The position numbers and the translations under genes were made by a program. DNA of 64,000 bases from Dictyostelium discoideum. Lineage: Eukaryota. Location of the stretch: assembly GCA_000004695.1 (NCBI GenBank), contig CM000154.2:4096001-4160000 (forward strand), given 5' to 3'. The first letter of the stretch is position 1, and each line of letters begins with the position of its first letter. The notes beneath the pieces were generated by a model, which was given only the letters and a program-made list of their open reading frames with translations, searched no databases and was not told the DNA's origin. Shown one piece after another: positions 9,013 through 44,855 of this stretch.

Positions 9013-9827
9013 GCAACAAACATCGTAGAAAATTATAAATCATTAGTAATAATAATAATAATTATAATATTAATATTGTTATGTTACGTTAAAATATGGT
9101 TTATTAATATTAATTTAAGTATAGAATCATTAGTAAGAGTATGGAATAATTTGGAATATATTAATACTAATCAATCAAAGGCTTGTCAAATCGAATTCTT
9201 GGATATTTTAATTAATAGAAATATTTCAGTAAATGATTCAACTGATTTCTTTTTAAAAGTATTCAATTCAACATCTTTCAAATCAAATAACAACAACAAC
9301 AACAACAATAATAAAAACAATAATAATAGCAATATATATGAAATCAATGCTATATTAAAATTTTAATATGAATATAAAATTTCAAGTCATTTGAAAACTT
9401 CACCTACAAAAACTGATAATTATTCATTAACTCCTTATTTCAGATCTTGTTGTGAACATTGTGAAGAAATAAATAATTTTTTAGCGAATCCCTCGATTAT
9501 AAACTTTTACTGTGAGATTCAAGATTCAAATAAAAGAAGACATCTTTTAAGAGATTTAAAGATAGGTGAAAGTTCTGATATTATTTCTTATAAAACTAAA
9601 ATAAAAAATAATATAACATTATATTTCAAAAAGAATTGAACGCAAACATTCAGAAAATTATAAAAAAAATGTTGGAAAAATTAAATCACTCTATGATCTT
9701 ACAAAATCATTTCCAATATTCAATAATACAAAAGCAATTGAATATCTTAAAAAACAACTTATAAAATTAAATTAAAAAAATAAATAAGTACTCTCAATAC
9801 ATTTTAAAAATATTTATATTTATTTTT

Positions 9828-10913: not shown

Positions 10914-11606
10914 CTAAAAATTGATTTATTATATATTTTTAAAAAATTAACTAACTGCAATATTATTGATTTTTTGATATTTTTATTTAATATTTTGGTT
11001 TTAAAAAAAAAAAATATTTTAAATAATCAAAAAAAAAAAAAATAAAAAAAAAAATAAAAAATTATTAAATAAAAAATTATTAAATAAAAATAGTGTGAAT
11101 GATTACCATTTTTTTAAATTGATTAATTAAATTATTGTAAAAATAGATAACCTAATTATATCACAATGACTGTTGTGATTAATTTAATATAATTAAATCA
11201 AAACATTATTTTTTTTTTCAAGTTTTACCACACAAACACACATTCGACATAAAAAAAAAAAAAAAAATAAAAATATAAAAATAAAAATTCAAAAAAAAAA
11301 AAATACCCACCACGACCAATCAAACCAAACACTTTTATTTTAATAACCCATCACGAAATAAATGTAATCACCAACTCTAACAACCACTCTACAAAAAAAT
11401 TGTTATTACTGTCCCTAAAACCCACTTAACTTTTATTATTATAAATAAAAATAAAAAATTCAAACAACAATAAAAAAAAAAAAAAAAAACAATTAAAAAA
11501 ATAAATAAATAAATAAATAAAAAAAAATAAAAAAATAAAATAAATAAAATAAAAAACATTTATTATTGTTTGAAAATAATTAAAACTGTTTTTATTATTG
11601 TTATTA

Positions 11607-13574
11607 TTATAAAATTTTAAACTGAATTGGTTTTAAAGTACCAAATTTTGTTTTTTGTAAATTTAAATCATTATCTAAATGAATTAAATCATCAAAAGAT
11701 TGACCATAAAGACCAGGTAATTCATTTTGAAGAAAAGTTAAAATATTTTCAAAAGAATCTAATAATGGGAAATCGATAGTTTGATATTCTAATAAATCTT
11801 TTCTTGTGATGATTGTTGGATCATTTAAAATTTGATTATGTTTTTCCAATGAGATTTGATTGATTTCTTTTGCATGTTTATAGAGTATTTCCTTTTGATC
11901 ACAACGAGGTATATGTTCGCAGAGTTGATAACAAATTGAATTGAAACCTCTTAATGAATACTTTAATAATCTACTATAGGAATGAGTTAACGTTTTAATT
12001 GATATTAAATTTGTACGAGTTTTCAAAGCCCTTAATGATCTTTCATGTAAATAAACATTATCACCATCGTAACATAATGATATACAATCAATATCATGAA
12101 ATAGAATTTGTTGTTCAATAGTTTTAGTTATAATAATAATCAATTGAATTATTCTTGTTCTTTTATTTTCATTATTATTACTATTATTATTTATTGAATA
12201 AACTATACTAATTGAATTTGGAGTTCTAACAAATCTATAATCACAATTATCATAACCATATGTTGAATGTAAATTTTCAATAATTTTTGAAGATACTTGT
12301 TTTAATTTTTTATTTGCATCTTCTAAAGAGTTTGAAATGATTGAGATATCAATATCAGACCTATAGTATGGTGAATCTAATGATTGTTGTTTATCATTGA
12401 TTGACCTTATGAATGAATAATCATCATGTACTAATCTTGTAATTCTCTTTAAAAGATATTTTGGTAATGGTAATTTAAAAATTAATCTTTCAATTCTTTT
12501 CATCTCTATATAATCTTTAACTAATTTTATACCATCACCTGGGAATGTTTCTAAACATGATAATATACAACCACCATAAACTACAACTTTTGTATAATTT
12601 TCATTATTATTATCATTATTATCATCATCACCACTATAACTACCCCAATCAATACCATCTAATAAATCAAAAGTAAACATTGAAAATGATTTTTTAAATA
12701 TTTCAATATTTGGTACTATTGAATTATAACCTATTCTATAATTTTCATACCATCTACTTTTAACACTATATATGAATGGATGTGAGAATGATTCATATTC
12801 ATCAATAACATCAAATTTAAAATTATAATCTTTTGATAGTTGACCATCTTTTTCATTATAAACTTTAATAATTCTACTATCTTCTTTATTAATATCAATA
12901 CCTAATAATTTAATTTCGTCATCTTCATTATTACTATTCTTCTTATTATTATTATTATTATTATAATAATTTGAAAGTTCTCTCCTTCTTAACATTTCAC
13001 AACCATTAAAAATTGAATTATCTATTGATTCTTTCAACCATTGCAATATTTCATATGAGTTATTATTAATATTACTATCATCATCATCATTATTATTATT
13101 ATTATTATCATTATTATTATTATTAATTATATCTAAAACTTCATTACTGTTTAATGATTTTATTATTTTTTTAATGAAATTTTCATTATTTAAATAAATT
13201 AAAAATAATTTAAAAGATTCTTTAACTTTTTGTTTTAAATTTTTTGTTGTTATTATTTCTTTATTTCCTTTTGTTGTTAATATTGGTGGTGTTGGTGTTG
13301 TTGTTGTTGTTGTTTTTGTTGGTGATGTTGTTGTTATATTAAAAAATATTAAATTAAAACAGTTTATTAAATTTATTATGAAATATAATGTGAAATTATA
13401 TGATTCTATTTCATTTTTATTGATAATTTTAGATTTAAAATCATCTGATAAAAATTTACAAAAATATTTATGGTCAATTGTATCTTGTTCACTATTATTA
13501 TCAATTTCGCATTGTTGAATATAAATTTGATATTTTATATCACTATCTAATTTTGAAATATTAATTATCATATT
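11607..13574 (-). CDS. Hypothetical protein with Asn-rich and poly-Thr low-complexity segments and a globular C-terminal half
   Basis: Long ORF on the minus strand. The first ATG of the track ORF (13655) reads through the poly-T promoter as poly-Phe. The likely start is the MIINISKLDSD methionine near 13574. I recognised no family. It contains YGGCILS...GDG and SDIDISI motifs. Confidence 0.55.
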   Translation of the reverse strand, partial: NMIINISKLDSDIKYQIYIQQCEIDNNSEQDTIDHKYFCKFLSDDFKSKIINKNEIESYNFTLYFIINLINCFNLIFFNITTTSPTKTTTTTTPTPPILTTKGNKEIITTKNLKQKVKESFKLFLIYLNNENFIKKIIKSLNSNEVLDIINNNNNDNNNNNNDDDDSNINNNSYEILQWLKESIDNSIFNGCEMLRRRELSNYYNNNNNNKKNSNNEDDEIKLLGIDINKEDSRIIKVYNEKDGQLSKDYNFKFDVIDEYESFSHPFIYSVKSRWYENYRIGYNSIVPNIEIFKKSFSMFTFDLLDGIDWGSYSGDDDNNDNNNENYTKVVVYGGCILSCLETFPGDGIKLVKDYIEMKRIERLIFKLPLPKYLLKRITRLVHDDYSFIRSINDKQQSLDSPYYRSDIDISIISNSLEDANKKLKQVSSKIIENLHSTYGYDNCDYRFVRTPNSISIVYSINNNSNNNENKRTRIIQLIIIITKTIEQQILFHDIDCISLCYDGDNVYLHERSLRALKTRTNLISIKTLTHSYSRLLKYSLRGFNSICYQLCEHIPRCDQKEILYKHAKEINQISLEKHNQILNDPTIITRKDLLEYQTIDFPLLDSFENILTFLQNELPGLYGQSFDDLIHLDNDLNLQKTKFGTLKPIQFKIL

Positions 13575-13821
13575 TGAAAAAAAAAAATAAAAAATAAAAA
13601 ATAAAAAAAAAAAATAAAAAATAAAAAATAAAAAAAAAAAAAAATTCCATGCCAAAAAAAAGATATTTTTTAACTATTTTATTTTTTATTTTTATTTTCC
13701 ATAAATACTAATAATTTATTTAACAAAACAATTTAAAATAATTATTAATTGTTTAATTATTAACTATTTGACCAACATATAATTTAGTTCAATAATAACA
13801 TAAATGGAGCAAACACAATAA

Positions 13822-13878
<57 letters not shown>

Positions 13879-15191
13879 CAAAAAAAAAAAAAAAGAACAA
13901 AAACAATTAAAATAACAATTTTAATGTGGACCATATAATTTATTTGAAAACAATTATTGATTCTTTGGGTGGTATACCGTTAGTGATTTTATATACAAAA
14001 CTATGTGAGATAAACCGACATTAAAAACTCCACCTTTGTGAAGGAAAAGTCTATGTTTAATTGATTCTAAAAATAGTATTATTATTATTATTATAATTAT
14101 TATATTATTATTATTTTGGTTGTGGTAATTGTGATTGAAATAATTGTTTAATGATTTTTGTGGGTTATAGTGAGTGTTTTTAAGTTGTCAGTGTTTAATA
14201 TTTGCAGGGCGGACGAACTTCTCAACCTCAATTTCTTTAAATACTATCATGATTTTAACTAATGATACCAAGTTGGAATAGATTCTTTGATGGTTTTTCC
14301 AAGATCAATGATATTAATCCAAATCATAATAATACATTTAAATGTTCAGCACTTTTGTTAAATGGTGTCATAAGCAGAGAACCCAGTTTCTATAATTTCT
14401 TTTGGAACCAAGCCAATTTCTTTAAGAAATGAAATAAACATCAAAACCAATCACCACTACTATTATTAAATTGTTTAAATTGTAAAAAGAAATGTAAACA
14501 TCAACTCATCGAGGTTGAAGGGGCTGTTAATATTACTATTAGTGTTAGTGTTGCAAGAAATGGTGATTCCAAAGGAATTGATTTTCAAAAGTTTTCATCA
14601 ATTTTGGGTCTAAGTTTTAAAGTTTCCACCATTATTTCAAATTGTAATAAAAATGCAAAAGATCAAACCAATTATTGTAACTTTATCAATTGGATAATAG
14701 AAATCCTTACCAATAATATTTAAAAACCTCCTTGTTTTAAATTAATTATACTAGTTTGATTGATGGTGATTTATAGATTATATTAAATGTTGATACTATA
14801 CTATTATCATTAATATTAAATAATAATTTACAAGCTTTATCATTTGGACCATTTAATTCAACTAAAATAAGATGCGATAGCAAGAGCAAGAATATTATTT
14901 ACAATTCTAGGCAATCAATATTATTCATATTTCAACATTTGGATGAACACATTGAGGTGTTGGTAAATTTGGGTTGCTCTCTTGATGATGAGTCAAAAAA
15001 AGTTTCCTTTGTAGAATCTGGTGAATGTCTAATATTTTTTTCCATGTTTTAAAAACAGTGCTTGAATTTAAATTGATTTCCTTTCTTTGAGCATCCAATA
15101 CCAATACAAAAAATTAAATAATTACTTTCTTGTATAAACTGTCCAGGTTTTAAAATAAAAAAAGTATTAAAAAATCAATTAGTATTTAAAT

Positions 15192-15237
<46 letters not shown>

Positions 15238-15373
15238 CTAGATACTTATTTAATGATGACAGATTTAAACAAAATTAAAAATACTAGGTTACATGTTATG
15301 TGTTTTATTATATTTTAAAAGTTTAAAAAAATAAAAAAATAAAAAAAAAAATTTTACCTCTGTTTTTGATTTA

Positions 15374-15419
<46 letters not shown>

Positions 15420-15633
15420 GTTCCAATGACTGGGAATAATAAAATTAAAATGTGTTTACAAATTGTTTTTTTTTTTCAAAAAAATCAAAATTAGGTAGAC
15501 ATTTTTTATAAGGATGTCACTCTTTTTTTTTTTAATAACAGGTTAATTACAAACACATATAAACCCTATTTTTTTTTTTTTTTAAACTTATAAAATATTA
15601 TAAATATTTTATTTTTATTATTTATTATTATTA

Positions 15634-22280: not shown

Positions 22281-25200
22281 TTAAAGTGGTAAAACTATTT
22301 CTTTTTCTTCTGGTTCAGTTTCAGTTAATGGTGAAATGGTTGGATCAGAACCAAATAATGAAGAGAAATCTTGTTTTTGTCTTGATGGAGTATTATTATT
22401 TGATTTTGCAACGCTGATTCCACCAAATAATGAATCTGAATCAAAGAGACCACCATTTGAAGTTGATGATGCTGTTGATGTTGATTCTTTGTTTGTTTTA
22501 ATTGAACCAAAAAGATCATCAGTTGAATCTGTATCGAATGGATCTTTCTTGGTGGTAGTTGAAGGTTTATCGAAAATGTCACTAGAGTTTCCAAATAAAC
22601 TATCGTCATCAGTACTAAAGAAATCTTTCTTTTTAGTTGAAGTTGGAGTTGATGAAGTTGTATCGGCAAATGGATCAGATGATGCAGCTGTTGATTTAGT
22701 TTCGGTTTCAGTTTCAGCTGAGAATGGACTATCATCAAAATCAAAGAATGATGTCTTCTTTGGTGTTTTCTTTGTGGTATCAGCTTCATCTGGTTTAACT
22801 GGTGTTGATGAAGTTGTAGTTGTGGAAGTGGTAGCGGCAGTAGTTGATGATTCTTCTTCTTCAGTAGTGGTTTGTCTTGGTGAATTATCAATTGATGGAA
22901 TTACTGGTGCAGTTGTTTCATCATCATCAATAGTTGGTGGTTCAACAACTTTTTCCTCTTCTTCTTCTACTTTTTCTTCTTCTTTCTCTTCTTCTTTTTC
23001 TTCAGTAGTTGTTGGTTCATCAACAGCAAATGGTGATGATTCAAATTTAGTTTCATTAATTTCTTCTTTAACTTGTTCAACAACTTTTTCTTCTTTTTCT
23101 TCTTCCTCTTCTACATCATCAATTGGTGGTGGAGTTGATGGTGTTTCTTCAGAATCTGATGCAACATCTTTTTCATTATCTTCATCATCATCTTTATTTA
23201 AAACTGGAACTTCAACTTTAGTTTCCTCTTCTTCTTCTGGAGCTGGTTCTTCAACAACTTTTTCATCTTGTTCATCATCTCCTAAAACTGGTACTTCAAC
23301 TTTTTCAAAATCGTCTTCATCTAAAGTTGGTGGTTCAACAATTTTCTCTTCAACGTCTGATTCAACTTTATCTTCTTGTTCATCTTCTAAAACTGGAACT
23401 TCAACTTTGGTTTCTTCTTCTTCTTTTTCTTCTTCTAAAACTGGTACTTCAACTTTAGTTTCCTCTTCTTCTTCTTCTTCAGATTCTTCTTTAGTAGATG
23501 AGAGTGGATCAACAACTTCTGATTTAGTAACAACTGGAGCTGTTTCTTTTTCTTTTTCTTCTTCTTCGTCATCATCGTCTTCAAGTTCATCACCCATTTC
23601 TTGTTGCATCTTTTCAATTTCGGCATCAATATTTTTAAGATCTTCTTCATTGATATCATCATAATCGTCTTCATCGTCGTCATCATCTTCATCATCTTTA
23701 GTAGAGAGTGGATCAACGACAGTTTGTGATTTAGCGACAACTGGTTCTTCAATTGCTGGTGTTGGTTTTTCTTCTTTAACTTCTTCAACAACAGTGACTG
23801 GTTCTTCAACAACAACTTCTTCTTCTTTAACTTCTTCAGCAATAGTAACTATTTCTTCAACAACAACTTCTTTTTCTTCTTCTTCTTCTTCTTGTTCTTT
23901 TTCTTCTTCTTTTTCTTCTTCTTTTTCTTCTTCTTCTTTTTCTTCTTCTTCTTTTTCTTCTTCTTCTTTTTCTTCTTCTTCTACAACTTCTTCTTCTTCT
24001 TTTTCTTGTTGTTGTTGTTGTTTTTCTTTTTGTTCTTGAATGTATTCAACAGTAACTCTTTTAATTACATCTTTAAATGTTGACATGATAGAATCAGTTG
24101 AATATTCTTCATCTTCATCAAATGATTCAGATACTTGAACAAATACTTTTTGCATACAAACTTTAACTTCTTTAGCGACATCAACATTGTTTGAAGATGC
24201 AACAGCAACAGTGGTACCATCGGATGGAACTTTAACAATAACTTCTTTAACGATAGTTTTTGGTGGTTGTGATTCTAAAGTTGATAATTTCTCTTTAGTT
24301 TCAATTAAAGATTTCTTTGTATCATCATATTGAGTTGTTAATTGTTGAATTTGTTGTTGAAGGGTGGTGATTAAATCATTCTCTTGTTTAGTTGATTCAA
24401 TACCTTCGGCGAAACCTTTTTTGTATGATTTAATGACTTCCTCTTTCTCATGATCCAATTTCTTTTTAGCATCATCGATTAATTTTTGTAATTGATCGAT
24501 TTGTTGGTTATTTGATTGTACGAGTTTATTATATTTCGATTGTTCCTCACTAAGTGATAATTCAGCAGCAGCGATAGCTTCCTCCTTTTTGATTAATAAA
24601 AGATTGAATTTGGATTCAGTCTCTAAACGAGTATTTTCAACCAAAGTTTGAACAGAGGATAAAGCTGAACGTTCAGTTTCCAAGGTATCTTTGAGTGTTG
24701 TAATCTCCAAAGTTAATTGAGAGACCTTATCATCGTTTCTCTTTTTAATTCTAACCATATCCAATTTAAGTCTCTTTAAGGACTCTTCATTGCTTTTCTC
24801 TGCTTGAGTCAAACTATCTTGAGCATCCTTTAACTCGTCCTCCAAAGAGTTGATTTTTTCAATATCAGATTTTCTGGCGTTCTTTTCATCGAGTAAACTC
24901 TTTTTGAAAGCACGGATTTTAAGGGCATAATCTTTTTCAGCTTGTTTGAGTGCCTCTTGATCTTGAATACTCTTTTGGTTCTCTTCTTTGGCAGAGTTGA
25001 GTTCCTCTTGAAGGGTGTTGTAGTCTCTCTTTAATTGATTGATAACTGATTGTGATTTAGTGTGTAACATTTGTTTATCGGCGAGATCATCCTCAACCAA
25101 TGTTTTTTGTTTTTGAAGGTCAATGATTTGTCTTCTCATTTGAGCGACATTATCAGTGATTGCTTCATTACGTGATTCCATCATTTTAGTGTTCTCTTCG

Positions 25201-27371
25201 AGGAATTGTTCATTCTTTTTATGAAGGGTAGCAATGTTTTCCTTTAGTGTAACCATACGATTCTCTTTTTCAACGTTCTCTTTGATCAATTTTTCATTGT
25301 CTTCAACTAATCTATGAAGTGTTTGAACTAATAGCACACCAGAGATTGGTACATCGCCTTTAACGATTGGTTGTGCCAATGAGTCAAATTTACTACTAAC
25401 TTGATCTAATTTACTATTGAATTGATCGATAGAATGTTTAATCTCCTTTTTGAATTGTTTCTCTTCAACCAAGATTTGAATGGTTTCAGTGGTTGATTGT
25501 ACTGGTGCTGGTGGTGCTTGAACAATCACTGGAGTTGGTGGTGGTGGAGCTGGTGCTGGTGTTGGTGGTGGTGCTTGTTGAACTGGTGGTGGTGGTGATG
25601 CAACAATAATTGATGGTTGTTGATGTTGTGGCATAATTGGTACCAATGCACCTGATCCAATCAATGCTTGTTGTTGATTATAAGCTGATCCAAATGTGCC
25701 CATTGGATTGAATTGTGGTGATTGTGATGATGTATACATATTACCATTCATACCAAATCCACCATTCATACCATTATTCATACCATTCATACCATTATTA
25801 AATCCATTATTCATACCATTCATACTATTATTACCAAATCCATTATTCATACCATTATTAAATCCATTATTATTATTCATATTATTATTATAATTATTGT
25901 TATTATTATAACCATTATTATTATTGTTATTATTATAACCATTGTTATTATTATTATTGTTATTATAATTGTTGTTATTGTTATTATTTTGGTTGTTATT
26001 TTGGTTGTTATTGTTATTATTATTATTTTGGTTATTATTATTATTGTTGTTATTGCTATTGCTATTGCTATTGTTATTGCTATTGCTATTGTTATTATTA
26101 TTGTTATTGTGACTATTATTGCTATGTGAATTTCTTGAGTTTGATTCATTCTCACTATCAGATGGTGGTGGAGAAGTGAAACCAGTGGCTCTACCTAATT
26201 TAGCAACTCTTTGAAGTAAATTAGCTTTATCATCCTAATAAAATAAAAAATAAAAAAATTAATAAATCTAAATTTAAATAATAATAATAATAATGAAAAT
26301 AATAGAAAGAAAAGACATACTTGTGGTACTGGAGAATTATCAAATAATTGAGTTGGTAAGGATTGTTGTGGAGCATTTGATGGTTGACCATTTAAAGATG
26401 GAAGTGAAGGTTCAGAACCTTCTTTTTTCTTTGAACCAGTGACTTCAAGGTCAAAGATTAAATTTGTATTTGGTGGAATGGTTGAATGACCTTTCTTACC
26501 ATATGCTAATTCTGAAGGAATGACCAAGATTCTTTTAGCGGATTTTCTCATACCAATGACACCTAAATCCCAACCTTTGATGACTTTACCTTCACCAACT
26601 ACAAAACGGAATGGTGTTTCCGATTGGAGATTAGAGTCGAATAAACTACCAACTCTTTGATTGTTCTCTAACCAACCTGCATACTTTATTGAAACACGAT
26701 CACCATTTGCAACTGGTTTGGTTTTCGATTGATTGTTGATATCGACAAATGTAATCTGTTGATAACCACCACTCGCACACTTGGCAATTGCAACATGAGT
26801 GGCATATTTAGTTGATTCCTCTGCTGAGTTGAATGTCATTGACCAGTTTTGGCCATTACCATCTGTGAAACTACCATAGATTGTTGTCACTGAATAATTG
26901 AATTGTGCTGTAATATTCACTGTGACAATATAATTCTTATTATTGTCATATGCTAATAATTGATATTTACCACTTGATTTATATCCTACAATTGCTGTTG
27001 CAATACTACCTGATGATACATATTCATTTTTATTATTATCACTATTGACAGAGAGAGAGGAGAGAGAAAGAAATTAAAAGAAAAAGAAAAGAGAGATTTT
27101 AAATTTAAAATATAAAATTAATAAATTTTTTTTTTTTTTTTTTTATTGTTATTATTTTTTTTTAAAAAAAAACTTACAATTTATATAAATGAATTGGGAA
27201 AGAAATTAAAACATCTGGTGAATTTGAATTTGCTGAGGATTGTGTTTTATTATTTGTATATTGTAATGATTGGTTACCTGACATTGCGTTATTATCTTTA
27301 AATAGTGATCCAAGTTTTTGTGAACTAGCTGCGTTTCTATTACTGTATTCTTCTTCTTCAGAAAAATTCAT
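22281..27371 (-). CDS. FKBP15/WAFL-like protein: N-terminal domain + FKBP-type PPIase domain + Q/N-rich linker + approx. 600-aa coiled coil + acidic E/K-rich and S/T-rich tail; three exons 27371..27178, 27041..26321, 26234..22281 (approx. 1620 aa)
   Basis: Exon 1 (ATG 27371, MNFSEEEEY...) ends in a phase-2 GTAAGT donor at 27177. Exon 2 follows the acceptor AG at 27043-27042. It encodes ...NWSMTFNSAEESTKYATHVAIAKC plus the FKBP core DRVSIKYAGWL...FRFVVGEGKVIKGWDLGVIGMRKSAKRILVIPSELAYG...LIFDLEV. A phase-0 GTATGT donor lies at 26320. The acceptor AG at 26236-26235 joins in frame to the 1199-aa track ORF, with no stops between 26234 and 25880. The track split this gene into three ORFs and began the FKBP exon at a GTG. 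The N-terminal segment resembles human FKBP15 (WAFL) as I recall it (from memory, unchecked). Confidence 0.8.
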
Positions 27372-28290: not shown

Positions 28291-29405
28291 TGACTTTATT
28301 ACCAAATTATTTATATAAAAATATTTTAATAGATTTAATAACATATATCTATAAACACAAAGTAATCAAATTTTTATGTGAAAAATCAATTGATTTTTTG
28401 TTGTTTATAAAAATAATGAAATAATTTTATATTCCACAGTTTCAAAAGATTGGTTTAATATAATTTCATCAAATTTACCACATTTAATTAATCATTATAG
28501 TTTTATTTTTTTTCACTTTCAAAAGTTATAAAAATTCTTCGAATCAAATTAATATAAATTATTTATTTCCTAAATTAAAATTAAATTATAATAATAATAA
28601 TGAAAAAAATAAAAAACTATTTTTAAATAGAATTAGTATAAATGACATGTTGAATATATATATGAATAATTCTGGTGAGGTTATTAAAGATGAGGATTTA
28701 AATTTAATTTTTGAAAAAATATCAAGTGATAAAACATTAAAAGAAATTCAGCTTAATCATGTTTGCGATTGTAGATGTAGTTGTTTTAAAGAAATTGGAT
28801 TAGATGTGGAATCATTTGGTAAAGCTATTGAAAAGTTACTGTCAGATTCAACTTTACTAAAATCAATTCGTTTGCTTCAGTTTACAACAGATTTAGATGA
28901 CTATATTATTAGAGGTTTAGTAAAATGTAAATCATTAAAAACACTATACATAAATGGTTATGATTATGATTCATTTAGTTTCCCATCAATAATTAATAAT
29001 ATACTATATTCAAATTCATCAATTAAACATATTATATTAGATTCTTATTCAAATGATGAGCTTGAAACTAATACAACCAATATTATAAATGGTTTGGATC
29101 AATTAATTGTCAAATCAGAGCTTGATATTACCACCAACATCAACAACAACATCAGCAATTTATTGGGTTACAGTGAAAGTTTTAATAATAATTTTGAATT
29201 TTATTCAATAACAATTACATTAAATTTTAATTTTTATAATTCTATTTTGAATTATTTAAAAAATTATAGTTTTAGAGTTAACGAATTCTTTTTAATATTT
29301 TCAAATCCTGAGAAATATCCAAAACATCACAAATTTACTCAATTTAAATTAAATAATTCTGTTATTAATAACAGAATTATGTTTTCTCATTTTAAATTTT
29401 TTTTT
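28291..29405 (+). pseudogene. Degenerate/truncated paralog of the downstream F-box-like gene (two frameshifts, about 600 aa internal deletion, no clean stop)
   Basis: 28291-28425 encodes MTLLPNYLYKNILIDLITYIYK..., nearly identical to the start of the 29686 gene, but hits a stop. Homology continues in a second frame (NNEIILYSTVSKDWFNII...) and then a third (FTFKSYKNSSNQININYLFP...MLNIYMNNSGEVIKDEDLNLIFEKISSDKTLKEIQLNHVCDCRCSCFKEIGLDVESFG...). The C-terminal 290 aa are still an intact ORF (28647..) but run into poly-T instead of the paralog's stop. Confidence 0.45.
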
Positions 29406-29685
29406 TTTTATTTTTTATTTTTTTTTTTCTGTTTTGTCTTGCAAGCCCGATTTTTTTTTTTTTTTTTTGAAAAGTTTAAAAAATCAAGTAAAAAAGCTTG
29501 GTTTTTTTTTTTTTTATAGAGATGACGTGGAGAAATTTCTTTATTTTCTTAAAAAACTTTTTTTTTATTTTATTTTATTTTATTTTATTTTTTTTATAAT
29601 AGATTTAACAAAATTTCATAAAAAAAAAAACACTATAATAGTTTTATTTTTTTCTTTTTTTTTTTTTTTCTTTTTCATTATCCAA

Positions 29686-30909
29686 ATGACTTTATTACCC
29701 AATTATTTATATAAAAATATATTAATAAATGTTATAACCTATCTATATAAAAATGAAACAATAAAAAAATTGTATAATCTTGGTATCAATAAATATAATA
29801 ATAATGAAATAATATTATATGCCACAGTTTCAAAAGATTGGTTTGATATTATCACATCAACATTACCACACTTTATTAATAAATATAATTTTGATATATT
29901 AAAGCCTTTAATTAATTTTAATGCTAATGAAAATGAACAAAATAATAATCAAAAATTAATTAAAACTCAAGATTTAAAATTCGCTAAAAAAACTTTATTT
30001 TTTTCTAAATATTTGGATTTATTAAATCCTACAACTCAACAAGAAAATGAAGTTGTAATTCAAGTTAATGCTGAAAATGAAGTTGTGAATCAAGCTAATG
30101 CTGAAAATGAAGTTAATAATGCAAATGATGTAATTGAAGTAAATTTAAAAGAAATTGAAGAAAAAAAACAAGAAAAAGAAAGTTTAGATTATTTTAAAAA
30201 TCTAGTACTTAGAGAATTTGATGTTGAAGAATCATGTAGAATCATTAATTCATTAAATCAATATACAGACAATTTTCGATTTTTTTTAAGTTTGGATAGA
30301 GAACATTTTGTTTATAATAAAATCCATACGATTACTGATAAAGAAACCTTAAAGAAAATTTTTTTCCTAAATTTAAATTGTGATTTTTTGGATGAATTAT
30401 CATTAAATAAATTTTTCAATTTAAATATTAGAAAGAAATCCTTTCAACATTTACCTGAAGAAGAATATAAATTTGAAAATTTCACTTTTAATTTCGTTTT
30501 TAAAAGCTTTAAAAATTCTTCAAATCAAATTAATTTAAATTATTTATTTCCAAATTTAAATTTTAATAATAATAATAATAATAATAATAATAGCAATAAT
30601 GATATCCAAAGTCCACAAACAAATAAAAAAGTTATTTTAAATAATATCAGTATAAATGATATGTTAAATATATATAATAACCCAAATGATAATAATAATA
30701 ATAATAATAATAATACTAACAATAACAATAACAATAACAATAACAACAATATTAATGTTGATAATGATAATAATAATAATGAAAACAATAATAATAATAA
30801 TAATGAAAATGATAATAATAATAATGATAATAATAATAATAACAATAATAATGTTGATCATGATAATAATAATATTAATATTATTAATCAAAATGATAAT
30901 AATAATGAA

Positions 30910-30987
<78 letters not shown>

Positions 30988-31567
30988 GAAAATGAAAATG
31001 AAAATGAAAATGAAAATGAAAATGAAAATGAAAATGAAAATGAAAATGAAAATGAAAATGATAATAATGAAAACAATAATATTATAAAAGACGAAGATTT
31101 AAATTTTATTTTTAATAAATTATCAAATGATCATACATTAAGAAAAATTGATATTAATCATATTTGTGATAAAGGTAGTTGTCGTTGCTTTGAAAAAAAT
31201 GGTTTAACATTAGAATCATTTGGTGACAAGATTGAAAAATTACTTTCAAGTTTAAAATCAGTTAAAACAACTAAATTATATTCATATTCGTCAAGATTAG
31301 ATGATTATATTATTAGAGGTTTATCAAATTGTAAATCATTAAAAACACTTTATTTAAGTGGTTATAATTTTGATTCTTTTGATTTTTCATCAATAATCGA
31401 TAGATTAATACTTTCAAATTCATCAATTAGTCATATTTTAATAGATTCTTATTTGGATGAGGAATTTGATCATTTAATGGAAATAACTAATATTACAAAT
31501 GCTTTACTTCGATTGGCAACAGATAGAGAAGAAAATACCAACAACTCTTCAGATTATAGTCAAAGTT

Positions 31568-31654
<87 letters not shown>

Positions 31655-31869
31655 TTAATAATTTTGAATTATATTCAATTACAATTCAATTAAATTTTAA
31701 ATATTATGATATTATTATTGATAATCTAAAAAACTATAATTATAGAGTTAAGGAATTCTTTTTAATATTTCAAACTTCTGGCAGAGAAAGAGAATCAGAA
31801 TATCGCCAAATTAAAGCAAATAACTCTGTTATCAATGTTTTCATTTTCACTGTTTTAACTGACGGATGA
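29686..31869 (+). CDS. F-box-like protein with a huge Asn-rich / (Glu-Asn)n low-complexity insert and an LRR-like C-terminal domain
   Basis: The true start is MTLLPNYLYKNILINVITYLYKNETIKKLYNLGINKYNNNEIILYATVSKDWFDII, matching the F-box pattern LPxxLxxxILxxL...VSKxW. The track ORF begins 250 nt earlier in poly-T. Includes (GAAAAT)n encoding (EN)14 and poly-N tracts. The C-terminus (...CRCFEKNGLTLESFG...LKTLYLSGYNFDSF...) is homologous to the 28647 ORF. Confidence 0.7.
30962..31066 (+). repeat. (GATAAT)n to (GAAAAT)n hexanucleotide repeat encoding DNDNDN(EN)14
   Basis: Read directly: gataat x4, then gaaaat x14. Confidence 0.95.
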
Positions 31870-38019: not shown

Positions 38020-39372
<1,353 letters not shown>

Positions 39373-39497: not shown

Positions 39498-42443
39498 TTA
39501 CTCATCATTTCCACCATTTTCTTCTTGGTTAGTGTTTTCATCACCACCTTGATTATTTTCATCACCACCTTGGTCATTTTCATTTCCTTGATTATTTTCA
39601 TCACCACCTTGATTATTTTCATCATTGCCTTGATTATTTTCACCACCATCTTGATCTTGGTTATTTTCATCACCACCTTGATTATTTTCATTATTGCCTT
39701 GATTATTTTCACTACCATCTTGATCTTGGTTATTTTCGCCACCATCTTGATTATTTTCACCACCATCTTGGTTATTTTCATCACCTTGATTATTTTCACC
39801 ATCACCATCTTGGTTATTTTCATCACCCCCTTGGTTATTTTGGTCACCATCTTGGTTATTTTCATCATTACCTTGATTATTTTCATCACCGTCTTGGTTA
39901 TTTTCATCACCGTCTTGGTTATTTTCATCACCATCTTGGTTATTATTTTCATCACCGTCTTGGTTATTATTTTCATCGTCACCTTGGTTATTATTTTCAT
40001 CACCCTCTTGGTTATTTTCATCACCGTCTTGGTTTTGTTCACCATCTTGGTTATTATTTTCATCACCATCTTGATTGTTTTCACCATCTTGATTATTTTC
40101 ACCACCATCTTGATTATTATTTTCATCACCATCTTGATTGTTTTCACCACCATCTTGATTATTTTCACCACCATCTTGATTATTATTTTCATCACCATCT
40201 TGATTATTATTTTCATCACCATCTTGATTGTTTTCACCACCATCTTGGTTATTTTCATCACCGTCTTGGTTTTGTTCACCATCTTGGTTATTATTTTCAT
40301 CACCATCTTGATTGTTTTCACCATCTTGATTATTTTCTCCATCTTGATTGTTTTCATCACCATCTTGGTTATTTTCACCATCTTGATTGTTTTCATCAAC
40401 ATCTTGGTTATTTTCATCACCTTGGTTATTTTCACCACCATCTTGGTTATCTTCACCACCATCTTGGTTATCTTCACCACCATCTTGGTTATCTTCACCA
40501 CCTTCTTGATTATTTTCACCACCATCTTGGTTATCTTCACCACCATCTTGGTTATTTTCACCACCATCTTGGTTATTTTCACCACCATCTTGGTTATTTT
40601 CACCATCTTGATTGTTTTCACCATCTTGATTATTTTCACCACCATCTTGGTTATTTTCGCCATTTTGATTATTTTCACCATCTTGATTGTTTTCACCACC
40701 ATCTTGGTTATTTTCATCACCATCTTGGTTGTTTTCACCACCATCTTGATTATTTTCACCACTATCTTGATTATTTTCACCACTATCTTGGTTGTTTTCA
40801 TCACCATCTTGATTGTTTTCACCACCATCTTGGTTATTTTCACCATCTTGGTTATTTTCACCATCATCTTGATTATTTTCACCACCATCTTGATTATTTT
40901 CACCACCATCTTGTTTATTTTCACCATCATCTTGATTGTTTTCACCACCATCTTGGTTATTTTCGCCATCTTGATTATTTTCACCACCATCTTGATTATT
41001 TTCACCACCATCTTGATTATTTTCACCATCTCGATTGTTTTCNNNNNNNNNNNNNNNNNNNNNNNNNNNNNNNNNNNNNNNNNNNNNNNNNNNNNNNNNN
41101 NNNNNNNNNNNNNNNNNNNNNNNNNNNNNNNNNNNNNNNNNNTCTTGGTTGTTTTCTCCATCTTGGTTGTTTTCTCCATCTTGATTATTTTCACCACCAT
41201 CTTGGTTATTTTCACCACCATCTTGGTTGTTTTCACCACCATCTTGATTATTTTCACCACCATCTTGGTTATTTTCACCACCATCTTGATTATTTTCACC
41301 ACCATCTTGATTATTTTCACCACTATCTTGGTTGTTTTCACCACCATCTTGGTTGTTTTCACCGTCTTGGTTATTTCCATGACCATCTTGGTTGTTTTCA
41401 CCACCATCTTGGTTGTTTTCACCACCATCTTGATTATTTTGATCACCTTGATTATTTTCACCACCTTGATTGTTTTCATCACCTTGATTATTTTCACCAC
41501 CTTGATTGTTTTCATCACCATTTTGATTGTTTTCACCATCTTGGTTATTTTCACCACCTTGATTATTTTCACCACCTTGATTGTTTTCATCCCTATTTTG
41601 ATTTTTGTTTTGGTCATCACCAGCTTGATTATTATTATTATTATTATTACTTTGATTATTATTTTCATCTTTTTTTGGTTCTTGTTTTTTAGGAATAATA
41701 CCAACTGATTGTGCAAAATTACTAATACCTGATCCGACAGCTTCAACACCCTCGTCAGCCAATTTACCACTTCCACCTCCAATTTTTTCCATTGTATCTG
41801 AGAAAATGGCACCTCCTGTAACAATCCTAATAGGGTTAAGAGCATCTGCAACTTTTCCACTTCCACCTCCCACTGTTTCAAAAATACCTGGTTTATCATT
41901 GGTATTGGTTGATGTTTTGGTTGGTGTTGTTGTGGAAGTGGTGGTAGTAGTAGTTGTTGGTTTTGGTGTTGTAGTTGTAGTTGTAGTTGTAGTTGGTGTT
42001 GGTGTTGGTGTTGGTGTTGGTGTTGGTGTTGGTGTTGGTGTTGGTGTTGCTTGAGGATCACCTGGGTTTGAACCAAATTGCTTTCTCTCATCATCAGTTA
42101 CTATAAATTTTTTATAATTATTATTTTTATTATTATTATTAGTAAATCTGATATATTTTGGATTATAATTATTATTTTTTAAAATATATTATAAAAATAC
42201 AAACATTTATAGGTATTATAAAACTTATCATCATTTGAAATTTTATCTTCAGTTTGTTTAATTTCTTTTTGAATATTTTCCAATTCGGCATTTCTCAAAT
42301 TTTCTTTTACACTTGGAACAATAGCGTTAAATACCGAACCAACCAAACCTCCAGAATTACTATGCCCATGATTTTTAACATCATCATATTTTTTCTTTAA
42401 TTCTGCAATTTTTTTATTATCCTCATCATCTAATATTATTAAA

Positions 42444-42510
<67 letters not shown>

Positions 42511-42566
42511 TTATTATTATTTTTTTATTTTTTTATTTTTTATTTTTTTTTAAAAAAAAAAAAAAA

Positions 42567-42601
<35 letters not shown>

Positions 42602-43131
42602 ATATACGTACGATTTGGTGGCAAACCTCCATTTGCAGCAGTTTTAGTAAAACCAAGAACTTCTTTAATATCTTCCATTTTTTTTTTATTCTCTTCTATT
42701 GTGTCTTCATCAACATGTTTAGGATTATGAATTATATCATTTTCCTCGAAGGGTTTCATAACTTCTTTGAATTCTTTAACATTTTTTTCCAAATTTTTAT
42801 TTTCTTCAACAAGTCTTTTATATTCAGAGATATCACCACTTTGTCTTTTTTCAATATCAGTTATTCTTGAATTTGTTTTATCCAATAAATTTTGAAATAT
42901 TTTTTTTTCATTGTCAGTTTTTGCATTTTTGACTGAATTTGAATAAGTTTGTTTTTCATTGGTCAATCCAATCATTTCTTTTCTATCCTTTTGATTTTGA
43001 ACCATTCTATCATTTCTATCTTTAGTTTCTTTTTGTCTTTTTTCTTGTATTTCTCTATTTTTATTATTTTCTTCTATGGCATGTGTAACTGAAGGAACAA
43101 TTGCTTTTGCAACTGCATCAAATATTGTCAT
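39498..43131 (-). CDS. Giant acidic repeat protein: non-repetitive N-terminus, (TP)n/poly-Thr linker, then >120 copies of hexa/heptapeptide E-N-N-Q-D-G(G); probable exons 43131..approx. 42639, approx. 42440..approx. 42232, approx. 42098..39498; contains an assembly gap
   Basis: Exon 1 (MTIFDAVAKAIVPSVTHAIEE...) ends at a GTACGT donor. The middle exon repeats the AIVPSV motif (SVFNAIVPSVKENLRNAELENIQKEIK), which ties it to the same gene. The last exon reads TDDERKQFGSNPGDPQATPTPTP...TTTTT...GGGSGKVADAL...GGGSGKLADEG and then the ENNQDGG array to GNDE* at 39498. The coding frame is chosen because it connects in frame to the non-repetitive N-terminus. The 871-aa (MVKTIK...) and plus-strand 727-aa (ILVIFITT...) track ORFs are the same repeats in other frames or strands. 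Exact intron borders for exons 2 and 3 are uncertain. Confidence 0.6.
39530..41620 (-). repeat. Tandem 18/21-nt coding minisatellite (GGTGAAAATAACCAAGAT[GGT] family) encoding ENNQDG(G)
   Basis: Direct reading shows more than 100 near-identical units with GGT/GAT/GAC and AAT/AAC wobble variants. No stop codons in most frames on both strands. Confidence 0.95.
41043..41142. other. Assembly gap (100 N) inside the ENNQDGG repeat array
   Basis: A run of exactly 100 n characters, flanked on both sides by the same 18/21-nt repeat units. Confidence 0.99.
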
Positions 43132-43310: not shown

Positions 43311-43450
43311 ATACTCTTTAATAATTAATATTGGAAGGTTTAATTTAAAAATAAATAAACCTTTCATATCTCCTCAGTTTTTTATAAAAATAACAACAAT
43401 AAAAATTGAGATAGCACAACCCAAAATTTATCTGTTTTGAAACTTTTTTT
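43311..43450 (+). repeat. 140-bp segment duplicated at 44405..44545 (upstream flank of the repeat gene and of its relic copy)
   Basis: ctttaataattaatattggaaggtttaatttaaaaataaataaacctttcatatctcctcagttttttataaaaataacaacaataaa aligns with ctttaacattcttcaacaattaatatttgaaggtttaaaataataaacctctcaaatcttctcatttctttataaaaataacaacaataaa, with further similarity through ...aatttatctgttttgaaacttt. Confidence 0.7.
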
Positions 43451-44127
43451 TAAAAAAAAAAAATAATATCATCATAATTGTTATCAAACTGTTTTTTTAT
43501 TTTATAATCTGTTGTTTTTTTTTTATATTAAAAATAAGAAATAAAAAATAAAAATAAAAAAAATATAAAAAAAAAATATATGGTGATATGATATAATTTT
43601 ATATACAAGTATAAACTATAAAAGGAAAAAGTAGAGGCTAAACTATTTAGTTGAAACTATTTAATAAATGCCATACAAATATTTGTGTTTTTTTTTATTT
43701 TTTATTTTTTTTATTTTTTATTTTTTTTATTTTTTATTTTTTTTATTTTTTTTTTCTTTTATCGATGAAAATATGAATTATGAATTTTAATTAGTTTACC
43801 AAAAAGGGAATTTTTTTTTTTTATTTTTTTTATATTTTAATGAAGAAAAAATTGGTATTTGTTTAAATAAACCATTGAATAAATAGGTTGTAGAAAAAAA
43901 TAAAAAAATATGAAAAAAAAAAAATCAACAACCAATAATTATAACCACAACCAATAACAACCAACAAACACAACAGCCGCCAATTGGGAAGAATAGTAAT
44001 GGTAATAGAAGTAATAGAAATAGCGTTAATTAGTAACAACAACTAATAATAACTACATCCAATAACAGCCAACAAACACAATAGCCGCCACTAATTCTAT
44101 TTACAATATAATCAAATCGAACAAACA

Positions 44128-44320
44128 ATGGAAATGTGTTGTTTTCACCACCATCTTGATTGTTCTCATCATCTTGGTTATTGTTTTCACCATCTTGATT
44201 GTTCTCATCATCTTGGTTATTTCTTCATCTTTATTATCTTCTTCATCTTGATTATTTTCATCACCATCTTGATTATCTTCACCACCATCTTGGTTATTTT
44301 CACAAAAAAAAAAAAATAAA
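44128..44320 (-). pseudogene. Relic mini-array of the ENNQDGG repeat (frame-broken), part of a partial tandem duplication of the upstream region of the repeat gene
   Basis: The reverse complement reads CENNQDGGEDNQDGDENNQDEEDNKDEE... and then loses frame. A 140-bp segment at 44405-44545 is a near copy of 43311-43450, which sits just upstream of the intact gene's ATG. Confidence 0.4.
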
Positions 44321-44855
44321 TAAAAAAAAATTAAAAAAATTAAAAAAAATAATAATAATTATTATAATTAAAGGTTAATAAAAAATGACAACAAATTAAA
44401 CTTTAACATTCTTCAACAATTAATATTTGAAGGTTTAAAATAATAAACCTCTCAAATCTTCTCATTTCTTTATAAAAATAACAACAATAAATTTGTTGGC
44501 ATTAATTTTATAAAACCCCAAATTAATCTGTTTTGGAACTTTATTTTTTTTTTTTTATTTTTTATTTTTTTAATAATAATATAATTGTTATATGTGAAAA
44601 GTAAAAAATTGTGTTGAAAAAATAAAAAAACAATGCTACCCATACAAATCCAAAACACCTTTTTTTCAACACAATGTTTTTTGATTATGCCATTATTCCA
44701 ACAAATCTGTTTGTTTTTTTTTTTTTTTTTTTTTTTCTTAAAAATAGAAATAAAAAAAAAAAGAATTAAAGAAAATATAGAAAAATGAAATAATTTAATA
44801 TAAACCAAAGATCACAATTGAAAATTAAAATTTGCACGGCATTTATTTCTAACCG

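Follow-up and report, generated by a model that had tools for sequence, protein, structure and literature searches.

Positions 39498-43131 of a 64,000-nt stretch of Dictyostelium discoideum AX4 chromosome 5 (GenBank GCA_000004695.1, contig CM000154.2, 4,096,001 to 4,160,000, forward strand; hereafter the window) hold a long tandem array of 18/21-nt units that is open in several reading frames and broken by an assembly gap. The locus raises the question of whether such an array is translated, in which frame, and whether the resulting polypeptide has a role of its own. We report that the locus is, very probably and judged on its sequence, a genuine protein-coding gene with three exons on the minus strand, in which the array is read in the frame translated as ENNQDG. 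The product would most likely carry a tethered, polyanionic, disordered tail for which length and composition, rather than the exact sequence, are selected. The gene is an uncharacterised, lineage-restricted example of a gene kind that is common in this genome and not a new kind of system.

Gene model and closure of the assembly gap

The boundaries given in an earlier reading of the window (the original prediction) run exactly from stop codon to ATG. Its proposal that the ENNQDG frame reaches a stop at 39498 and joins two upstream exons was borne out by canonical GT-AG introns, matching phases and a coding sequence without internal stops; the splice phases connect exons 1 and 2 to the ENNQDG frame only. 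The parts of the gene are as follows (window coordinates; the ortholog is that of the divergent strain described below).

42612..43131, minus strand: exon 1, aa 1-173 plus 1 nt; ATG at 43131, final C followed by the donor GTACGT
42430..42611, minus strand: intron 1, 182 nt, GT..AG, with (TTTA)n, poly-A and (AAT)n; 127 nt in the ortholog
42205..42429, minus strand: exon 2, aa 174-249, phase-consistent splicing, final T followed by the donor GTTTGT
42101..42204, minus strand: intron 2, 104 nt, GT..AG; 101 nt in the ortholog
39498..42100, minus strand: exon 3, including the stop codon 39498-39500; true length 360 nt greater owing to the gap
41916..42047, minus strand: Thr/Pro-rich linker, (TP)9, T9, PKP, T7 and so on
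41661..41915, minus strand: glycine-rich middle segment, aa 311-395; contains GGGSGK[VL]AD twice, as well as a pair of mildly hydrophobic stretches
39501..41591, minus strand: tandem array of 18/21-nt units encoding D-G-(G)-E-N-N-Q; 817 aa, aa 419-1235
41043-41142: assembly gap, 100 N standing for 460 bp (about 22 units), in the most homogeneous part of the array

The gap of 100 N was correctly noted in the original prediction, but the copy number that was there taken to be unknown can be read from a public gapless assembly. Specifically, the AX4-identical assembly GCA_054883475.1 carries the locus on a 5.29-Mb chromosome that also holds the neighbouring gene at 38020-39372 verbatim, and it matches the window exactly over 3,023 nt on the left flank of the gap and 6,175 nt on the right flank. 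The sequence between them is 460 bp of repeat, in frame and open. When the exon boundaries of the window are placed on the gapless locus, a coding sequence of 3,708 nt (1,235 aa) is obtained, with the same length and coordinates (11479-15472, minus strand) as the gene called there. The three-exon model thus reproduces the lengths of the independently called products in both assemblies, 1,235 aa in AX4 and 1,332 aa in the divergent strain. The complete AX4 protein has a predicted mass of ~133 kDa and a pI of ~4, and contains neither Cys nor Trp. The reference locus of AX4, until now interrupted, is hereby resolved, with 460 bp of in-frame repeat in place of the gap and a product of 1,235 aa.

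The period of 21 (and 18) nt was confirmed by Tandem Repeats Finder calls at 39535-41028 and 41143-41589. The number of units had been overestimated at more than 120: 96 are visible in the window (23 and 73 on the two sides of the gap) and about 118 are present in the gapless sequence, the commonest being DGGENNQ (39), DGENNQ (17), DGDENNQ (8) and DSGENNQ (7). The AX4 array also holds higher-order blocks, seen as exact internal repeats, 60-95 nt long, that recur at offsets of 183-471 nt. The longest of these cluster in and around the gap fill, which would explain why the original assembly broke there.

Coding frame of the array

That all six frames are open, as had been stated, does not hold in full over the gapless array, where four of the six are open or nearly so. 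On the sense strand the ENNQDG and MVKTIK frames contain no stop and the third frame 244, while on the antisense strand there is none in the ILVIFITT frame, one in the DYFHHH frame and 60 in the remaining frame. Likewise, in place of three long minus-strand frames, the list of open reading frames (ORFs) shows two long ORFs on the minus strand and one on the plus strand. The product could thus in principle be another one, either that of the MVKTIK frame (an 871-aa ORF with its own ATG at 42094) or that of the plus-strand ILVIFITT frame (727 aa), as both ORFs are long and uninterrupted in the window.

To compare the frames, each 18- or 21-nt unit was set against its consensus, which gave 169 differences in AX4, of which 148 are transitions. 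In the ENNQDG frame 57% of the differences are synonymous, against 30% expected. The corresponding shares are 7% against 24% expected in the MVKTIK frame, 10% against 36% expected in the ILVIFITT antisense frame, and 27% against 30% expected in the other, nearly open antisense frame (27-36% over the AX4 and ortholog arrays together). When each distinct unit variant in AX4 is counted once, the ENNQDG share is 45% against 10%. In the array of the ortholog it is 51% (49% with distinct variants counted once), and the other stop-free frames there show 7-10%. Since the synonymous excess is seen in the ENNQDG frame and not in the two fully open alternatives, these data point to ENNQDG as the coding frame.

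Three further observations agree with this. First, a single transition would turn the CAA codon of each unit into the stop codon TAA, and yet this change is found in none of the 120 CAA codons in AX4 and none of the 133 in the ortholog, despite abundant AAT/AAC variation. Second, the protein-changing substitutions in the unit census mostly stay among D, E, N, G and S. Third, the ENNQDG frame is open across 2.45-2.7 kb in two diverged strains, whereas in the ortholog the MVKTIK frame meets stops upstream of the array, between linker and array. Neither the MVKTIK nor the ILVIFITT ORF connects to the conserved upstream exons, their shares of synonymous unit variants (7-10%) lie well below the 24-36% expected, and the gene callers on two assemblies picked the ENNQDG model. 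We consider a real product from either of these ORFs extremely improbable. The original prediction had treated both as by-products of the repeat, a view with which splice phases, product lengths, synonymous excess and the open frame all agree. The choice among the four open frames could in this way be settled with sequence evidence alone.

Codon use within the array is distinct from that around it: 36% of its Asn codons are AAC, a share that falls to 10% in 12 other window genes and to 9% outside the repeat in the gene itself. GGT accounts for 90% of its Gly codons, and the mRNA strand is 72% purine. Elsewhere in the window, a 442-aa S/V-rich ORF (22336-23664, plus strand) lies antisense to a large E/K/T-rich gene (22281-25880, minus strand), and looks like another low-complexity antisense by-product of the type seen in the repeat array.

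Tandem paralogs, constraint and the non-repeat parts

A comparison strain, the 'D. discoideum' isolate GCA_054859355.1, was found through exon 1: in a word-indexed homology search, exons 1-2 matched only P0012, the split N-terminal product of a decayed paralog in that isolate. The corresponding locus (L001) bears two tandem paralogs, here called copy A and copy B. Copy B (L001 16183-20409) is the intact ortholog, with the same three-exon structure. Its introns measure 127 and 101 nt, its exon 3 is open over 1,106 codons, and its three-exon model of 1,332 aa equals the annotated length. Copy A (L001 10001-13816) has decayed: AIVPSV is absent from its exon 1, and it was called as two genes because intron 1 and half of exon 2 are missing. 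Its array has a frameshift near 12800 and a CAA to TAA change at 13105, which are either genuine lesions or long-read errors. We also note that the frameshift moves this array out of the ENNQDG frame and into MVKITK, a frame that is equally open, so that copy A, if translated, would give a chimeric repeat protein that is first acidic and then basic and hydrophobic.

In AX4 the region 47300-44660 is syntenic with L001 6965-9636 (89.5% identity), and next to it lies what is left of copy A.

44139-44556, minus strand: stump of the lost tandem paralog copy A, a promoter-like element joined to a repeat fragment

Within the stump, 44556-44333 is 87% identical to the copy A promoter of the divergent strain, and 44306-44139 corresponds to a 165-bp frameshifted fragment of the array. 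Because only these two pieces remain, AX4 has deleted nearly all of copy A. The gene thus belongs to a two-member birth-and-death family, the paralog being in decay in one strain and almost deleted in AX4.

The two strains also allowed constraint to be estimated segment by segment, with dN/dS as the ratio of nonsynonymous to synonymous substitution rates (AX4 against copy B).

Exon 1: 75% aa identity, dN/dS 1.24
Exon 2: 88% aa identity, dN/dS 0.26
Linker: 89% aa identity, dN/dS 0.38
Glycine-rich segment: 90% aa identity, dN/dS 0.26

The glycine-rich segment is the best-conserved part of the protein and is also kept in the decayed paralog; its AlphaFold model has low confidence (predicted local distance difference test, pLDDT, 58). 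In exon 1, an alignment to the ortholog inspected by eye shows a hypervariable loop at about aa 115-146 with well-conserved flanks. The array differs in length (817 aa in AX4, 911 aa in the ortholog) and in the proportions of 6- and 7-residue units, but in both strains it is of the same composition, in frame and stop-free.

Upstream of the coding sequence a further conserved stretch was found.

43330..43455, minus strand: conserved upstream element, about 200-330 nt before the ATG; candidate promoter or 5' untranslated region (5'UTR) element

This element of ~110 bp is present in four of four promoter copies (43330-43455 and 44380-44520 in the window, ~9700-9800 and ~15900-16000 in L001), while the surrounding AT-rich intergenic DNA is otherwise poorly conserved. 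Its core, GAGATNTGARAGGTTTATT, was found only twice in the window, where chance would give 0.02 occurrences, and it contains an inverted repeat, AAGGTTTA...TAAACCTT, with an A-T / G-C / G-T swap between copies. Only a weak RNA hairpin (z -1.7) is predicted from it. The element could be part of the promoter or of the 5'UTR.

Exon 1 encodes an N-terminal FDAVAKAIVPSV motif followed by a charged helical hairpin domain. AlphaFold predicts helices at 3-69, 73-130 and 142-159 (pLDDT 81), and the model is that of a generic antiparallel, charged helical hairpin. Exon 2 carries a second copy of the motif, GSVFNAIVPSV...ENIQKEIKQ. The presence of AIVPSV in both exons, as well as the double GGGSGK[VL]AD, had been correctly recognised in the original prediction, in contrast to its "(TP)8, poly-T12", which is in fact (TP)9 followed by T9. 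The Ser of AIVPSV is encoded by TCA in exon 1 and by AGT in exon 2, which argues for conservation of the motif as protein and against recent copying of the DNA.

A search with Foldseek using the exon-1 model returned generic helical-hairpin matches, among them, near the top, several ESCRT-III, Vipp1 and PspA chains. The protein might on this account be an ESCRT-III/PspA-like membrane remodeller in which an N-terminal amphipathic helix and a helical hairpin are combined with an outsized acidic, autoinhibitory tail; a hydrophobic-faced motif does precede the hairpin, and ESCRT-III proteins have an acidic C-terminal half. All E-values were, however, 0.3 or higher, the Snf7 and PspA_IM30 profiles gave no match even at E <= 10 with exon 1 of AX4, ortholog or paralog, and the hairpin has a net charge of zero, as opposed to the basic hairpins of ESCRT-III. 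Such an identity is very improbable, and an assignment of exon 1 to ESCRT-III was rejected, the fold matches being those of generic helical hairpins.

No signal peptide had been expected from the original prediction, and none was found: the best 19-residue Kyte-Doolittle window reaches 1.24, and AlphaFold places the N-terminus inside a 67-residue helix. With the same windows no transmembrane-like segment was seen in the whole protein. These results bear on a further explanation, namely that the protein is secreted and O-glycosylated, either as a mucin-like extracellular or spore-coat protein or as a calsequestrin-like lumenal calcium store, with the array binding Ca2+ or matrix. Dictyostelium surface and spore-coat proteins have O-glycosylated spacers resembling the (TP)9/poly-T linker, and the extreme carboxylate density of the array would suit such a function. 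The protein nevertheless has neither a signal-like nor a hydrophobic N-terminal segment, its lack of any cysteine sets it apart from the Cys-rich matrix and coat proteins of Dictyostelium, and Pfam domains, thioredoxin-like ones included, are as absent as EF-hand and RTX motifs. We regard secretion as improbable. One weak motif resembling a nuclear localisation signal, KRQK, is present at aa 31.

The original prediction placed the gene in no described family, and our searches agree in that no Pfam match and no sequence relatives were found. Pfam gave no family at E <= 1 for aa 1-567 and nothing relevant at E <= 10 for separate domains, nor any LEA or dehydrin profile at these thresholds. For the glycine-rich segment, phmmer against 1.84 billion representative proteins returned no match, a weak negative as the libraries were without the gene's own full-length products, and the word-indexed homology search with this segment returned none either. 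Word-indexed matches to aa 1-398 consisted of Thr/Pro low-complexity sequence only and were rejected as spurious. Exact look-ups of the 1,235-aa product, the gap-split fragments and the exon-1 ORF gave no match, the PDB sequence search gave nothing meaningful, and the repeat string had no match in a full-text literature search. The Rfam search found no match in the window.

With respect to the surroundings, exact look-up of ORFs identified the neighbours as DDB_G0290471, DDB_G0290427, DDB_G0290495 and DDB_G0290497 on AX4 chromosome 5. The window has a GC content of ~20%, and its intergenic DNA consists of (AAT)n and homopolymers. The convergent neighbour gene (38020-39372, plus strand) has an (AAT)44 tract at 39190-39322, which gives ~45 residues of poly-Asn near the C-terminus, and its stop codon lies only about 126 bp from that of the repeat gene. 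Further away, the adjacent plus-strand ORFs 28647-29519 and 29434-31869 have similar leucine-rich C-terminal regions (for example IKDEDLNLIFEKISSDKTLKEI and IKDEDLNFIFNKLSNDHTLRKI) and on this sequence evidence appear to be tandem paralogs; the latter also carries long (NE)n/(ND)n tracts.

Nature and possible role of the acidic tail

The array consists of 30% N, 22% G, 17% D, 15% E and 15% Q. Among its 817 residues 259 are acidic, two are basic (K/R) and one is hydrophobic, which gives a net charge of -257, while each non-repeat segment is electrically neutral. The grand average of hydropathy (GRAVY) is -2.78 for the array and -2.24 for the whole protein. The long, extremely acidic and glycine-rich product that the original prediction had anticipated is thus seen in net charge as well as in glycine content. 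Because the tail contains only two K/R, trypsin would leave it as three giant peptides, and standard shotgun proteomics would miss it; this may explain why such proteins go unnoticed.

Several known classes resemble this protein in part. The original prediction had proposed a hydrophilin-like, calcium-binding or phase-separating protein, suggestions that are speculative. In its composition the protein qualifies as a hydrophilin by the operational definition (glycine above 6%, hydrophilicity index above 1), with 16.5% Gly in the whole protein and 21.7% in the array at the GRAVY values given above. As with hydrophilins and LEA proteins, it is very hydrophilic, repetitive and predicted to be disordered. 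LEA proteins, however, have an 11-mer amphipathic repeat and mixed charge, whereas the AX4 array is without an 11-mer, is far more acidic and has almost no K/R. Polyanionic disordered proteins and tails such as those of prothymosin-alpha, nucleoplasmin, nucleolin, Dictyostelium nucleomorphin (DEED) and calsequestrin share with the array dense Asp/Glu and hardly any basic or hydrophobic residues, and the array would likewise be expected to be an expanded polyelectrolyte with cations or basic proteins as ligands. It differs from them in having no sequence homology, in the dilution of its charge by N, Q and G in a strict 6/7-residue period, in being five to ten times longer, and in lacking folded chaperone or thioredoxin domains. 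With 45% Q+N it is also similar to the Q/N-rich prion-like domains that abound in Dictyostelium, and 30-46 Q/N per 80 residues are counted throughout (against a cutoff of >=30). The low charge of such domains is not shared, as there are 19-31 D/E per 80 residues and a net charge per residue of -0.315; this acidity is incompatible with the typical aggregation-prone domain, and the array would be expected to resist aggregation rather than to nucleate it.

A further likeness is to the low-complexity tandem-repeat proteins of AT-rich protists (the N/Q/T-rich proteins of Dictyostelium, Pf11-1 and the S-antigen of Plasmodium falciparum), which likewise contain an exonic minisatellite of tens to hundreds of units, with strain-variable array length, hydrophilic disordered composition and several frames open as a by-product. 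The D-G-(G)-E-N-N-Q unit matches no described repeat in Pfam or by literature string search. Plasmodium antigens mostly have a signal peptide, which the AX4 protein lacks, and among Dictyostelium repeat proteins ~118 units and a net charge of -257 put it at the extreme end.

The main alternative is that the gene is real but young and dispensable and the array a tolerated minisatellite without a function of its own. Slippage or unequal crossing-over in a repeat-prone, AT-rich genome could produce such an array, and a soluble, non-aggregating, stop-poor unit would do almost no harm and so persist. In favour of this view, the gene appears lineage-restricted, its tandem paralog has decayed or been lost, the array varies in length between strains, and exon 1 shows a hypervariable loop together with a dN/dS that overall exceeds 1. 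Tandem repeats have been reported in up to half of D. discoideum proteins (PMC12871928), and with repeat proteins so common the gene is an extreme but ordinary member of its kind. The array has nevertheless kept a synonymous excess in the coding frame in two strains, no stop has arisen in 250+ CAA codons over both while the decayed copy has one, nonsynonymous changes lie mostly within D, E, N, G and S, and composition is the same in both strains. We consider a functionless array a serious possibility, though not the one that we favour.

Our preferred reading, to which we assign a probability of roughly 0.55, is that the tail functions as a polyanionic disordered region. The array would grow and shrink by unequal recombination or replication slippage, with selection acting on frame, charge and polarity rather than on the exact sequence. 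The tail would be a permanently disordered, expanded and highly soluble polyanion, an 'entropic bristle' or counter-ion sink, which the helical and glycine-rich parts, by oligomerising or by binding a partner, may tether in the cytosol or nucleus. The tethered tail could take up cations or basic partners, such as Ca2+/Mg2+, polyamines and basic proteins, or maintain hydration and prevent aggregation around it. A specific tethered cation-binding or solubilising role of this kind is a tentative suggestion.

A number of points weigh against this reading. Transcription and translation are deduced from conservation. Exon 1 as a whole evolves fast (dN/dS 1.24), and the family is partly dispensable, one paralog being decayed or deleted. 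Linkers rich in Thr/Pro are seen more typically in secreted proteins of Dictyostelium. Regular-expression scans for EF-hand loops (PROSITE PS00018) and RTX motifs (GGxGxDxUx) gave 0 matches; with a single hydrophobic residue in the array, neither motif is possible there. The unit variants are not independent events, and the synonymous excess is inflated because blocks have been copied, although it persists when each distinct variant is counted once. Finally, relatives outside the D. discoideum group were not found, an absence that is only weakly established because the libraries lack the gene's own repeat-bearing products.

A bolder and rather unlikely version is that the gene founds an undescribed family specific to the D. 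discoideum group, in which the conserved glycine-rich anchor and the helical hairpin tether a polyanionic brush of ~300 nm contour length with a dedicated cellular role. Such a brush might act, for example, as a high-capacity cytosolic or nuclear buffer of cations or polyamines, or as a solubilising 'anti-aggregation' partner for the exceptionally N/Q-rich Dictyostelium proteome, and array length could be a tunable trait. Indels could also switch the tail from a polyanion (ENNQDG) to a basic-hydrophobic sequence (MVKTIK), the +1 sense frame also being open, as seen in the decayed paralog.

Taken as it stands, the locus is a record of birth and death in a pair of giant repeat genes of the D. 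discoideum species group. Should the tail have a role, it would offer a clean natural model of selection for charge, frame and length, as opposed to sequence, in a very long disordered polyanion; it might then also contribute to cation buffering or to the unusual resistance of Dictyostelium to aggregation.

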